Positions 47,899 through 58,437 of a stretch of DNA of 64,000 nt are shown piece by piece. The DNA lies in the NCBI GenBank assembly GCA_963724325.1, contig CAVRUH010000005.1, positions 224,001-288,000 of the forward strand. The letters run 5' to 3'. The DNA comes from Waddliaceae bacterium. GTDB lineage: Bacteria; Chlamydiota; Chlamydiia; Chlamydiales; Waddliaceae. The position numbers were made by a program, and so were the translations under genes. Under the pieces are notes generated by a model that searched no databases, was not told the DNA's origin, and saw nothing but the letters and a program-made list of their open reading frames with translations. Positions within the stretch are counted from its first letter, which is position 1. Each line of letters starts with the position of its first letter.

Positions 47899-49938
47899 TT
47901 GGATAATGAAACATTAGTTAAGGAGACGGGACTCCTAAAAATTCATGATATATCGGTATCGAAAGATTATCTCAATGCATGTCCGGTAAAAAAAATTAGC
48001 AAGGGTCAGATTTTCTATAAAGTCGGTGACATGGCCGATACAGTCTATATCATCAAGAAGGGAAAAGTACAGATTTTCATTACGGATTCGCGTGGAGAAG
48101 AACTAATACTGTCACTAAGAAAAGAAAAGGGCTTTTTTGGAGAAAATGCGATCATTTACCACAATGGAATGAAGAGGCTCTCTAATGCTCGAGCTTTTGA
48201 AGATTGCGAATATATAATGTTGCCGCAAGAAGAGCTTTATAAGTCACTCAGATCTGATAAAGAAATTACCAAACTTAAGCAAGAACGAGGTCCTGACTAT
48301 GTTTTTCAACAGCTAGAGCAAAATTTTCAGTATCTTCAAAAGAGCAAATTAGATTTTTCAAGTATTCAAGAAAAAACCAGGGCATTTAAAGATAGACAGG
48401 TTATCTTCTTTCAAAATGATAAGCCAGATTATGCATATTTAATCATGAATGGAGAGGTGGATATATGGTCAAAGCAAGAAAATGGGAAAGAAGGTGTTAA
48501 TATTATCCTTGGACAGGGTGAAATTTTTGGGGAACTAGGTGTTTTAAATGGGAATTCTCGTAATGCGATGGCTGTTTCTCGTGGTAACAGCGAGTTGATG
48601 CTCATAAATAAGGAAACTTTGTTGCGATTGTGTGGATCAAACACCAATTTTAAAAATATTATATCCTCCCTCGGTAATGTCTACAATGTTCCTCTATTGG
48701 GCAAAGCAAGGCGCTATGAAGGTGACTTTTTGGGGATGCCTGCCATTTGTATTAAAATGGAAAGCTTTAAACAAAAATCATTCTTAAGTTATCAAGTTGT
48801 GGGTAAAGATATATTTTGCTTCTCCGTGCTTGACATTGAAGGATACCAATCCTACTCTTTCATAAAAAATACTGATGAACGAATGGAAATATGGATAAAA
48901 GACGATGTCTTGGTCGGTCTAGTTAATTATGGTTCCGTAGATGACGGCAGTTCAATAGTGCAAATGATTTTACATATGACCAAAATCAACAGCAATGCCA
49001 TCAGTCATTTCGAGAAAACCGGGAAATTGACAGATATAGTTGTTCAGCCGCTTAAGGTGATAAAGGGAACAATATGCCAATGTATGCAAGTTAGCTATCA
49101 AACTGTTAATGATACAATTAAAACCGGAGAGAGTTCTCTTAGCCAAATCGTTAAAATAACAGGTGCAGGATCGGTTTGCGGTTCTTGCAAACCCAGAATT
49201 CAGGAATTGCTCGGATATGACGTATGGAAACTTTGTAAGCTGACGAGAATCATCAAACACAATGAGAAAATATGGTCCTTTCAATACTCACCCATTAATC
49301 CAGCAGAAAAATTATCTTTTCTTCCTGGTCAGTACGTTGTACTAAGATGTTTAATTCACAAAGAATGGATCGAAAGACCCTATACTCTAACAAGTCACCC
49401 AAATGATGATTTCTATGAAGTAACTATCAAAAAGGAGGAAAGGGGGGCCTTATCTAGGTGGCTGTTTGAGAACGCTTATGAGGGAATGATTAATCACATT
49501 TCAGAACCGCAAGGTAATTTCATATTTGACAATCCATTGGAAAAGCCCGTTATTATATTTGCCGGAGGAATCGGTATCACACCAGCAATAATCATGGCTA
49601 AAATGATTAAGGGGAGCTATCACAATGGCATATATGTTGACTATTCCTATAGATTTGAAAACGATGCCATCACTAGGGATTTTTTTGATAGTGCATGCGA
49701 CAAAAGCTCTAAATTCCAAATTAAATATCGCAATACCTCTTCTAAAGGACGAATTAGTTCCGATGAAATTGCCGAACCTATAAGAACTTTCAAAAATGCT
49801 GATATTTACATTTGCGGTCCCGTTGCTTATAATGAAAATGTTAAAAAGATGCTTGTAGAAAAGCATACTGTTCCAACAGGGAGAATATTTGTTGAAAATT
49901 TCTCTTATATTGGTGGTCCTGAAAGAAAACCTGTATAA
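47899..49938 (+). CDS. Tandem cNMP-binding + BFD-like [2Fe-2S] + FAD/NAD(P) reductase fusion
   Basis: SD AAGGAGG, TTG start; FFGE..R and IFGE..R cassettes; CQC...CGSC; RPYTLTS, AGGIGITP, YICGP, ENF. Confidence 0.85.
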   Translation: MDNETLVKETGLLKIHDISVSKDYLNACPVKKISKGQIFYKVGDMADTVYIIKKGKVQIFITDSRGEELILSLRKEKGFFGENAIIYHNGMKRLSNARAFEDCEYIMLPQEELYKSLRSDKEITKLKQERGPDYVFQQLEQNFQYLQKSKLDFSSIQEKTRAFKDRQVIFFQNDKPDYAYLIMNGEVDIWSKQENGKEGVNIILGQGEIFGELGVLNGNSRNAMAVSRGNSELMLINKETLLRLCGSNTNFKNIISSLGNVYNVPLLGKARRYEGDFLGMPAICIKMESFKQKSFLSYQVVGKDIFCFSVLDIEGYQSYSFIKNTDERMEIWIKDDVLVGLVNYGSVDDGSSIVQMILHMTKINSNAISHFEKTGKLTDIVVQPLKVIKGTICQCMQVSYQTVNDTIKTGESSLSQIVKITGAGSVCGSCKPRIQELLGYDVWKLCKLTRIIKHNEKIWSFQYSPINPAEKLSFLPGQYVVLRCLIHKEWIERPYTLTSHPNDDFYEVTIKKEERGALSRWLFENAYEGMINHISEPQGNFIFDNPLEKPVIIFAGGIGITPAIIMAKMIKGSYHNGIYVDYSYRFENDAITRDFFDSACDKSSKFQIKYRNTSSKGRISSDEIAEPIRTFKNADIYICGPVAYNENVKKMLVEKHTVPTGRIFVENFSYIGGPERKPV

Positions 49939-49950
49939 AAGGAGCAATTT

Positions 49951-57068: not shown

Positions 57069-57081
57069 AAAGGAATAGCTT

Positions 57082-58437
57082 ATGCCCGAAATACCAGTAA
57101 TAAAAATGCCCGAATCAGAATTTTTTTCCTGGAATCGAAACGATCCCGTAGGGCTTCGAAGGTATATTTTTAACACCTATGGTGATATCGCTAAAATCGA
57201 TATGAAATCAATGCCTAATTATTTTTTTATGAGTCCAGACCATGCACAAGTTATCTTTGGTGAAAAACAGGATAATTTTTTTGATAAACATCCATTTCTG
57301 GTACATGGTTTTGCCCCAATCATTGGTACAGACACATTTTTTACTCTGAATGATCGAGAAAAATGGAAAAAAGATCGTCATATTGCATTGAAAGCAATAG
57401 ATGCCATGGTCCACTTCGAACGCTATGCAAAAAGAATGTACGAAATGGGAAAAATGCGTGTCGATGGATGGACACAAAAATATAAAGATAACCAAAAAGT
57501 CAATATGGCGCGTGAATTTGGTTCAATGACCCTAGACTTCATTCATAATTCCTTCTTTTGCTATATCGATGAAGTCCCTGAAAAAATGTACGACACCCTG
57601 TATGACTGCGTAGGTATCATCATTGATAAGCAAACCTCTCTTAAACCCTCCGAATGGGAAACGCCAAAAAAAATAAAAATTTATGAAGATGCTGTCGGTA
57701 CATTAAGACAAATATATCAGATCTGGGTAAAAAATCGTCTCGACTCAGGCCAGGAGTTTGATGATTTTATGGGTCTAATGATTCATGAATACTCAAACGA
57801 GTTTGGCAAAGAAAAATTAATCGAAAATATGGCTCTTCAAGTCTCTATGGCCTCTACTGCAGGATTCTTCACCAGTTCTCCTGCCTTTTTGTGGCTCTTT
57901 ATAGAGCTGGCACAGCATCCCGATGTGGAAAAGAAAATTTGCGAAGAAATCAATCGTGTCATCGGCGATGGTCAACCAACATATGAACAAATAAGACAAC
58001 TGTCTTACTGCAATGCCGCGATCAAAGAATCCATGCGATTGAATCCTACAAGCTACAATACATTGAGAGTGTGTACGGAGGATACCTATGTCAAAGATTA
58101 TTTAATTCCGAAAGGATCAGGAATCATCGTTTCTATATCCCAAATTCACCGCCACCCAAATTTTTGGAAAGATCCAGATACTTTTAATCCCGATCGATTT
58201 TTAGACAAACCAATGGGGCAGGATCATCCCTATGCCTTTATCCCTTTCGGGGCTGGTAAAAGAGCTTGCATCGCCCGGCAGCTTGTATTTTTAGAACTAC
58301 TTATCGCTCTGGTGCTCATTACACGTCGATTTTCTTTTGAACTTGTTCCTTTTCGGCCTATTAAACCAATAATGACAGCGCCCATCACCATGAGGCCAAA
58401 TGAGACCGATCTGATCATAAAATTTAAAAAAACTTAA
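57082..58437 (+). CDS. Cytochrome P450 (2), paralog of 49951
   Basis: KESMR, PDRF, PFGAGKRACIA; same length (451 aa). Confidence 0.93.
   Translation: MPEIPVIKMPESEFFSWNRNDPVGLRRYIFNTYGDIAKIDMKSMPNYFFMSPDHAQVIFGEKQDNFFDKHPFLVHGFAPIIGTDTFFTLNDREKWKKDRHIALKAIDAMVHFERYAKRMYEMGKMRVDGWTQKYKDNQKVNMAREFGSMTLDFIHNSFFCYIDEVPEKMYDTLYDCVGIIIDKQTSLKPSEWETPKKIKIYEDAVGTLRQIYQIWVKNRLDSGQEFDDFMGLMIHEYSNEFGKEKLIENMALQVSMASTAGFFTSSPAFLWLFIELAQHPDVEKKICEEINRVIGDGQPTYEQIRQLSYCNAAIKESMRLNPTSYNTLRVCTEDTYVKDYLIPKGSGIIVSISQIHRHPNFWKDPDTFNPDRFLDKPMGQDHPYAFIPFGAGKRACIARQLVFLELLIALVLITRRFSFELVPFRPIKPIMTAPITMRPNETDLIIKFKKT

Follow-up and report, generated by a model that had tools for sequence, protein, structure and literature searches.

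This locus raises the question of how its two cytochromes P450 obtain their electrons, and whether a cyclic nucleotide decides when they do so. The window analysed, 64,000 nt from a Waddliaceae bacterium (GCA_963724325.1, contig CAVRUH010000005.1, positions 224,001-288,000 of the forward strand), contains two gene pairs on its plus strand: module 1 (47899..49938, 679 aa) with P450-1 (49951..51306, 451 aa), and module 2 (55743..57068, 441 aa) with P450-2 (57082..58437, 451 aa). The original prediction placed each P450 gene immediately behind a gene for a cNMP-cNMP-[2Fe-2S] protein, and the ORF coordinates agree, giving gaps of 12 nt in the first pair and 13 nt in the second; RBS-like purine-rich runs precede all four starts. 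Between the pairs, on the minus strand, lie bshA and bshB1-like genes (bacillithiol; 51360..53175) and a gene for a cNMP-cNMP-PqqD-like-M50-like membrane protein (53622..55616), divergent from module 2 at a distance of 126 nt, which belongs to a different family from the modules because it lacks their linker domain. The two copies are 58% identical in the module and 69% in the P450, values which, together with the differing spacers, rule out a collapsed repeat or duplication artefact. Promoter and terminator scans stayed at chance level (30 found versus 37.5 expected).

The domain content and cofactor motifs of module 1 can be observed directly. Two cyclic nucleotide-binding domains, cNMP-A (47989..48255) and cNMP-B (48379..48639), are followed by a linker domain of about 120 aa (48670..49038, approximately aa 258-380), a BFD-like [2Fe-2S] domain with C393, C395, C427 and C430 (49069..49212) and an FNR-type part that binds FAD and NAD(P) and carries the motifs RxYT, GGIGITP, YICGP and, at the terminus, ExF (49249..49845), all on the plus strand. 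Pfam finds two cNMP_binding domains (E 3.6e-38), Fer2_BFD (5.4e-12) and FAD_binding_6 (2.7e-8), with NAD_binding_1 slightly below its cut-off (21.5 versus 22 bits), and in module 2 only two cNMP_binding domains and Fer2_BFD, matching the expectation that the FNR part is confined to the first protein. The linker domain between cNMP-B and BFD did not figure in the prediction. Linker and BFD of module 1 (aa 300-442) align to NirB 320-469 (E 6e-12); the linker resembles in shape the C-terminal domain found in ferredoxin reductases of the BphA4 type (1d7y, Z 8.5, rmsd 2.7, 87 aligned), the BFD domain matches 6e6q (Z 8.6, rmsd 1.4, 51 aligned), and the solved structures nearest to the CNB domains are PKA-R and PKG. 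Foldseek gave no match at E<=0.001 for linker-BFD and single-domain matches only for the full-length module, whose structure model has a pTM of 0.47, so that no domain arrangement can be derived from it. An automatic ESM Atlas cluster with 65 members shows the same three Pfam families (0.94), with no function attached.

Both P450s match Pfam at E<1e-69 and keep the heme-Cys motif FxxGxRxC and ExxR (C396 in alignment numbering, E316 and R319 are invariant in 19 rows); neither has a C-terminal partner domain of the class VII kind, the partner being the separate upstream gene. A feature absent from the prediction is that both have lost the I-helix acid, which is Phe in P450-1. The acid is missing in 17/17 members of their clade (13 Phe, 3 Thr, 1 Asn), which retain the Thr/Ser, and present in 50/50 P450 matches outside it. 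This suggests non-standard proton delivery, and the clade may perform unusual chemistry.

A P450 lies directly downstream of the module at three further loci (L001, L007, L012), and in a P450-seeded scan of 80 loci the sole members of the acid-less clade (L123, L134) both follow a module, against 0/78 of the others, many of which have little upstream DNA. In the tree, P450-adjacent modules fall on one branch (support 97/94) together with 7 unlabelled rows. This pairing within one clade is a direct observation; with eight true module-P450 fusions, the conserved adjacency bears out the proposal that the module protein is a P450 redox partner, and we regard it as very probably the electron donor.

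The architecture was thought not to have been described in such a role, and our literature searches likewise found no published description of cNMP-cNMP-linker-BFD-FNR; supplements or figures of PMC4436077, PMC7400543, PMC2246266 and Agapie et al. 2009 could show related forms. None of the ten P450 redox-partner classes listed in PMC11173547 has a BFD cluster, the domain order of the module or a sensor domain. Classes I and VII, as set out there, share with the module the order NAD(P)H, flavin, Fe-S, heme, but a class I partner consists of a separate reductase and ferredoxin, which are fused in module 1, and the class VII partner is an FMN-NADH-[2Fe-2S] unit fused to the C-terminus of the P450, whereas the module is a separate upstream gene with BFD ahead of FNR. 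The NirB large subunit (TIGR02374) has a homologous linker and first BFD, yet it carries a pyridine-nucleotide FAD domain where the module has its cNMP pair, and the module has FNR after BFD and no siroheme domain; TIGR02374 scores 44.8 bits on the module against a cut-off of 578, the match being confined to linker and BFD. PKA-R, PKG and the Bact_Pyrredox family also have two CNB domains with a canonical phosphate-binding cassette (PMC2246266), but in the module the pair is fused to a BFD-FNR chain, and none of the 30 CNB families in Table 1 of that paper is described there with this architecture.

The redox core is not new, as a BFD-FAD-NAD reductase has already been described for the Sorangium NO synthase (NOS). 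Agapie et al. reportedly described in 2009 a Sorangium cellulosum NOS (scNOS) with an N-terminal reductase. This reductase is described as binding a 2Fe-2S cluster, FAD and NAD and as an electron donor to heme. According to PMC4436077, scNOS and Silicibacter SiliNOS, like module 1, place a BFD-like 2Fe-2S domain and then FAD/NAD domains ahead of a heme-thiolate enzyme. The acceptor in scNOS is a fused C-terminal NOS oxygenase, whereas here it is a separately encoded P450; the flavin domain after BFD is shared by scNOS and module 1 but not module 2; and the Sorangium cap consists of EF-hands, judging from the legend in PMC7400543, where modules 1 and 2 have two cNMP domains. NO_synthase (Pfam) matched none of the window proteins tested, and no NOS oxygenase was found in the genome. 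Because the characterised Sorangium NOS reductase works in this way, we infer that electrons would pass from NAD(P)H to FAD, to the BFD-type cluster and on to the P450 heme.

The module family is widespread and common in free-living phyla, and its fusions to other acceptors are directly visible: among 45 long homologues, 24 are joined to a membrane domain with four invariant His (matched in the ESM Atlas by unnamed clusters only, <0.9), 8 to a P450, 6 to an NO-synthase oxygenase and 1 to a desaturase, the remaining partners including multiheme cytochromes. Contrary to what had been supposed, the module is thus not specific to P450s, since most partners of its homologues are other enzymes. The giant cNMP-repeat proteins P0108, P0117 and P0126 were excluded from all family counts, and one of four matches in the phylum (G380) was dropped because it is limited to the FNR domain of a protein of another kind. 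The cap itself is seen to be exchanged or absent. The 151 Polyangiaceae genomes contain 7 NOS genes: the same linker-BFD-FNR-NOS chain is capped by cNMP domains in 3 of them and by EF-hands in 2, the linker being shared between EF-hand-capped NOS and module at E about 1e-13; BFD-FNR-NOS without a cap occurs at L028 and L038. Since the same core bears a cNMP pair or EF-hands, or no cap at all, a swappable sensor is indicated. We dropped an assignment of the Sorangium-type cap as cNMP, given the EF-hands in the Polyangiaceae caps and in that legend. NOS with a cNMP cap is encoded at 13 loci, one of them in the cultured strain Polyangium jinanense (L108), and these bear on a question raised in PMC4436077, which states that the physiological inputs stimulating fused bacterial NOS enzymes are unknown.

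All four cNMP domains of the window's modules exceed the Pfam cut-off (60.8-71 versus 27.5 bits), and the G-E...R cassette is intact in three, the exception being cNMP-A of module 2, with Ala for Glu; at least one domain per protein therefore keeps the cassette, as predicted, namely both in module 1 and domain B in module 2. Only cNMP-A of module 1 is fully canonical (G43, G81, E82, R93), combining the cassette with the allosteric Gly of the beta2-beta3 loop (PKA Gly169), which in cAMP binders co-evolves with the Arg (PMC2246266). Both B domains have Asn in place of this Gly, that of module 1 retaining G211, E212 and R221. Across the family, 160/172 A domains and 151/172 B domains retain G-E...R, at mean identities of 35% and 29%, and 1 protein has lost it from both; at least one complete site (Gly and cassette) occurs in 163/172, module 2 being among the 9/172 without any. 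From these retained phosphate-binding residues, the cNMP sensing proposed originally is likely at the family level, and binding by module 1 is probable.

The module could be a constitutive P450 reductase whose cNMP-like cap docks, dimerises or binds another small molecule, and the pocket drift in the window's lineage (no allosteric Gly in cNMP-B of both modules, P0002 and P0003), the unusual Asn after the Arg in 100/172 A domains, the loss of the B-site motif in a sister sub-branch (P0122, P0084 and others) and the ligands other than cNMP that CNB folds accept (PMC2246266) would suit such a role. We nevertheless consider it unlikely, as site A of module 1 is fully canonical, G, E and R are retained family-wide, and the exchange for EF-hands and the cap-less forms are easier to reconcile with a sensing role than with a scaffolding one. 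We lean, by a modest degree, towards gating of electron flow by cNMP. A cyclic nucleotide, likely cAMP from the bacterium's own cyclases, is predicted to switch the flow via the N-terminal cap, possibly by having the BFD domain held on, or released from, the NirB-like linker. For the whole account, a P450 fed by a cNMP-capped [2Fe-2S] donor with its flow switched by a cyclic nucleotide, we estimate a probability of about 0.55. Turnover of a P450 normally depends on its expression and on substrate; if the account is true, a donor gated by cNMP would add a new layer of regulation and offer a ready switch for biocatalysis.

A host origin of the signal had also been suggested, by which cAMP or cGMP would tell the bacterium of its place inside the host cell. 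The Chlamydiota, to which the organism belongs, are host-associated, and its own cyclases may serve other purposes. This idea is nonetheless improbable, since the genome itself encodes four class III cyclases, cyclases are found in 5/5 other module-bearing genomes tested, and the module family is common in free-living phyla. The four cyclases of this genome are STAND-TPR fusions with what we take to be the Lys/Asp pair of adenylyl cyclases and with Ser/Ala at the usual catalytic Asn. Their presence is weak evidence for the source of the signal because 231/401 genomes of the phylum have cyclases.

Module 2 ends at the BFD/FNR boundary. It may be a decaying remnant, or a decoy that transfers no electrons, with the full module 1 or a copy on another contig (C7) feeding P450-2 directly; besides the missing FNR and the lost Glu of site A, a same-genus copy (G195, 381 aa) ends even before BFD, and a wider search for FNR-less homologues returned module 2 only, a search that also missed a known FNR-less copy on C7. 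We find this conceivable but the weaker explanation, because module 2 has an open frame, all four BFD cysteines (as does module 1), a clean stop at the domain boundary and its own spacer and RBS-like run. Furthermore, of two more module copies on C7, neither with a P450, one is full and one FNR-less; they are sisters in the tree (support 99/90), which places two independent origins of the truncation in this genome. A mis-assembled deletion is an unlikely origin for it. A dN/dS of about 0.17 between the modules also speaks for module 2, though dS is near saturation and the value gauges selection since the duplication and not since the truncation. We slightly favour module 2 working in trans, likely as a capped ferredoxin reduced by the FNR of module 1 or of the full C7 copy; we infer that it would then resemble a class I ferredoxin, with cNMP control of module 2 itself likely weakened. 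The proposal that a single reductase domain serves both P450s remains plausible, as only two FNR-type domains were found in the genome.

The cap exchange, the acid-less P450 clade and the two independent FNR-less copies are points beyond the original prediction. Tentatively, and at somewhat less than even odds, bacteria may have a portable cassette whose electron donation is gated by second messengers through a sensor cap that can be exchanged (cAMP-type here, Ca2+/EF-hand in Sorangium-type NOS). Signals would then act directly on P450s, NO synthases, desaturases and membrane cytochromes b, much as calmodulin gates animal NOS. In the Waddliaceae bacterium the capped ferredoxin would have split off twice, with one flavin domain feeding two acid-less P450s of differing signal sensitivity.

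Module 1 had further been proposed to supply reduced flavin to both halogenases of the window (35135-36589 and 40165-41631), on the grounds that no separate flavin reductase was visible. Reductase genes do exist elsewhere in the genome (Flavin_Reduct, C7:454460; FMN_red, C1:392599), the halogenases lie 6-13 kb from module 1 in other units, and a halogenase was sought in vain at the five other module-P450 loci (L001, L007, L012, L123, L134). The FNR part does show family likeness to Fre and LuxG, far under cut-offs, and an HpaB gene is divergent from the module at L001; HpaB requires free reduced flavin. Taken together, we consider this additional role very improbable. Among the sequencing runs listed, none of them RNA, five soil DNA runs appear with shares of 0.06-0.08.

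The window encodes two gene pairs, with the four reading frames and the 12- and 13-nt gaps anticipated by the original prediction. Module 1 (679 aa, 47899–49938) contains, according to Pfam, two cNMP-binding domains, a BFD [2Fe-2S] domain, FAD_binding_6 and a borderline NAD_binding_1, and P450-1 (Pfam P450, 49951–51306) starts 12 nt past it. Module 2 (441 aa, 55743–57068) has two cNMP domains and BFD without the FAD and NAD domains, and P450-2 (Pfam P450, 57082–58437) starts 13 nt past it; the predicted restriction of the FNR-type reductase to the first partner also holds. The copies are 58% (modules) and 69% (P450s) identical. 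The two pairs are separated by bshA, a bshB1-like gene and a gene for a membrane protein with tandem cNMP domains that is unrelated to the modules (53622–55616; cNMP-cNMP-PqqD-like-M50-like, divergent from module 2), the third tandem-cNMP gene in 8 kb. We conclude that the pairing is real, intact and present twice in the window: a sensor-capped reductase, itself uncharacterised, next to a P450 from an unusual clade.

The stretch between the second cNMP domain (B) and BFD, to which the original prediction gave no name, matches NirB positions 320–469 together with BFD (E 6e-12 and 3e-13). In agreement with this, a linker-BFD model (pLDDT 91) superposes on BphA4, a ferredoxin reductase, over 87 residues of its C-terminal domain (Z 8.5, rmsd 2.7), and on Pseudomonas Bfd over 51 residues (Z 8.6, rmsd 1.4), with middling Z values. 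The four BFD cysteines are invariant in 182/182 covering sequences and the FNR motifs of copy 1 are intact in the family alignment; the full-length model of module 1 (pTM 0.47) does not fix the domain arrangement. The module is not NirB, the match being to linker and BFD. Judging from PMC4436077, PMC9311577, PMC3701330 and PMC9500659, its redox core is homologous to the Sorangium-type NOS reductase and would work alike; the module itself is not a NOS. It fits none of the ten P450 redox classes listed in PMC11173547, and the literature searched, with subscription journals and supplements outside its scope, contained no relevant description of a cNMP-capped form of this reductase (the cap being the N-terminal cNMP pair), or of the architecture as a P450 redox partner, as had been supposed.

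All 19 other matches of the first search carry cNMP, BFD and FAD domains. Among 45 long homologues (>760 aa, from the best 150 profile matches, leaving out giant cNMP repeats and proteins already scanned), Pfam detected a fused NOS oxygenase in six, and a P450 is fused in eight; other additions were a desaturase (1), multiheme c (2), an N-terminal FAD oxidoreductase (1), and three CxxCH motifs (1 further protein), and two proteins were left unassigned. The other 24 have a C-terminal membrane domain of 3–5 predicted helices with four histidines invariant in 24/24, which we infer to be a putative di-heme cytochrome b; in this group (P0062) the histidines form two pairs 14 columns apart, and the domain has no Pfam family. 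In a survey of the 15 best genome loci (L006 left out), partners were a following desaturase (2), PrnB (1), flavin amine oxidase (1) and fused NOS (2); cNMP-capped NOS is encoded at 13 loci in all among those examined here. The window genome has two more modules, both on another contig, C7: a full one of 674 aa and a shorter one of 479 aa that stops after BFD. No P450 lies near either, and the genome yielded only two P450s. The module is a family that is not specific to P450s: a P450 directly follows it in the window and at three of the 15 loci (L001, L007, L012), but NOS, desaturase and membrane domains are also partners. Fused P450s score 24–68 bits against the acid-less clade profile (7/8 fusions tested), which indicates that the module was joined to P450s more than once. 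In two module-P450 fusions, P0157 and P0159, a NOS-oxygenase-like N-terminal remnant (Pfam match only in P0157) sits between FNR and P450, suggesting that the P450 may have taken the place of a NOS domain. L001 (16218–17387 and 6362–7843) also encodes a second derivative of the module, reduced to cNMP-A and FNR without cNMP-B, linker or BFD, and it has HpaB in divergent orientation to the full copy; at L109 (8579–9937) a flavohemoglobin-like gene is convergent with a cNMP-capped NOS.

Seventeen proteins group as one P450 clade, clearly separated from the rest by profile score (582–665 versus ≤363 for others). The I-helix acid of the acid-alcohol pair is missing in all 17, whereas Glu or Asp is kept in 50/50 other matches. 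When the P450 alignment was used as the seed of a genome scan, 80 loci came back, two of them with clade members, L123 (540 bits) and L134 (445), both with a module directly upstream, of which only the C-terminal end is visible in L134, at a contig edge; none of the other 78, many with little upstream DNA, has a module upstream of the P450. P450-adjacent modules share one tree branch (97/94) with seven unlabelled rows, the assignment of P0003 being tentative. The clade is tied to the module, and a role of the module as electron donor to the P450 is well supported.

The G-E...R motif is kept in 160/172 A domains (mean identity 35%) and 151/172 B domains (29%), and a single protein of the 172 lacks it in both. 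In cAMP binders a Gly co-evolves with the Arg of the phosphate-binding cassette (PMC2246266); when this Gly is included, 163/172 proteins have at least one complete site. In the window, site A of copy 1 is complete, both B domains have Asn for Gly, and copy 2, with Ala for Glu in domain A, is one of the 9/172 without any complete site, so sensing is strongly supported for the family and less so for the window. We predict that cNMP likely gates electron flow. NOS was found in 7/151 Polyangiaceae genomes, six of which were examined for layout: three loci (L108, L112, L113) carry the cNMP pair, two (L110, L111) have the same linker-BFD-FNR-NOS under a cap with EF-hands, and one has another layout; Sorangium NOS carries EF-hands and BFD (PMC7400543). 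The cap is thus exchangeable between cNMP-pair and EF-hand types, a second argument for a sensor. Because L028 and L038 encode BFD-FNR-NOS proteins without any cap, it is likely dispensable for electron transfer.

Host-derived cAMP/cGMP, also proposed, is unsupported, as a tandem array in the genome encodes four class III cyclases of its own and a host source is not needed. Such cyclases occur in 5/5 other module-bearing genomes tested, against a background of 231/401 Chlamydiota genomes, and lend slight support to cNMP sensing; genus g8, with 25 small genomes among the 401, had none. The four tandem genes of ~1070 aa (G000:C7:390994-401330; L121:5764-18797) encode a double zinc ribbon, class III cyclase, STAND-type ATPase and TPR, with near-identical N-terminal halves and diverged TPR ends.

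Module 2 ends exactly at the BFD/FNR boundary and has its own spacer before P450-2. Divergence is dN 0.32 and dS ~1.9 (near saturation) between modules, and dN 0.18 and dS 1.56 between P450s. The short C7 copy is sister to the full C7 copy (support 99/90), which means that two separate losses removed the flavin domain, both in the presence of a full paralogue; the genome (85% complete) yielded only two FNR-type domains. Copy 2 fits a ferredoxin reduced in trans. A decaying remnant also fits, because a same-genus genome has a module copy ending before BFD and a low-sensitivity search found no other FNR-less form.

The module is present across many phyla and in at least 3/399 other Chlamydiota genomes searched; G380, with only the FNR domain in an unrelated protein, was dropped from this count. 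The acid-less clade was found in 0/399 (other matches 118–154 bits). GC3 of the four window genes is 0.31–0.37 versus 0.37–0.49 for three core genes, and the module-P450 genes were likely gained laterally.

Two CmlS-like halogenases lie 6–13 kb upstream of module 1. The suggestion that the reductase supplies them with reduced flavin found no support: Flavin_Reduct and FMN_red genes exist elsewhere in the genome, and a halogenase is absent from all five other module-P450 loci examined. The halogenases, 64% identical, belong to a secondary-metabolism-like patch (31164–44200) next to shikimate genes, together with an ACP-KR-ACP polyketide fragment, an FAD monooxygenase and two separate genes (38363–40042 and 43352–44200) that each encode part of a split rifamycin-phosphotransferase/PigC-like enzyme. 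Bacillithiol genes follow in this genome, which kinship places in Chlamydiota (44862–46151 and 51360–53175; bshC and bshA score above the NCBIfam cut-offs and bshB1 slightly below), with bshC flanked by two DUF4760 paralogues (44158–44862 and 46302–46727, 66% identical). Both rho and polA are split over two ORFs (5386–6529 and 7182–9934) by frameshifts or assembly errors. Eukaryote-like genes for a patatin-like phospholipase and an OTU/otubain-like protease (59887–61790) are possibly host-directed.
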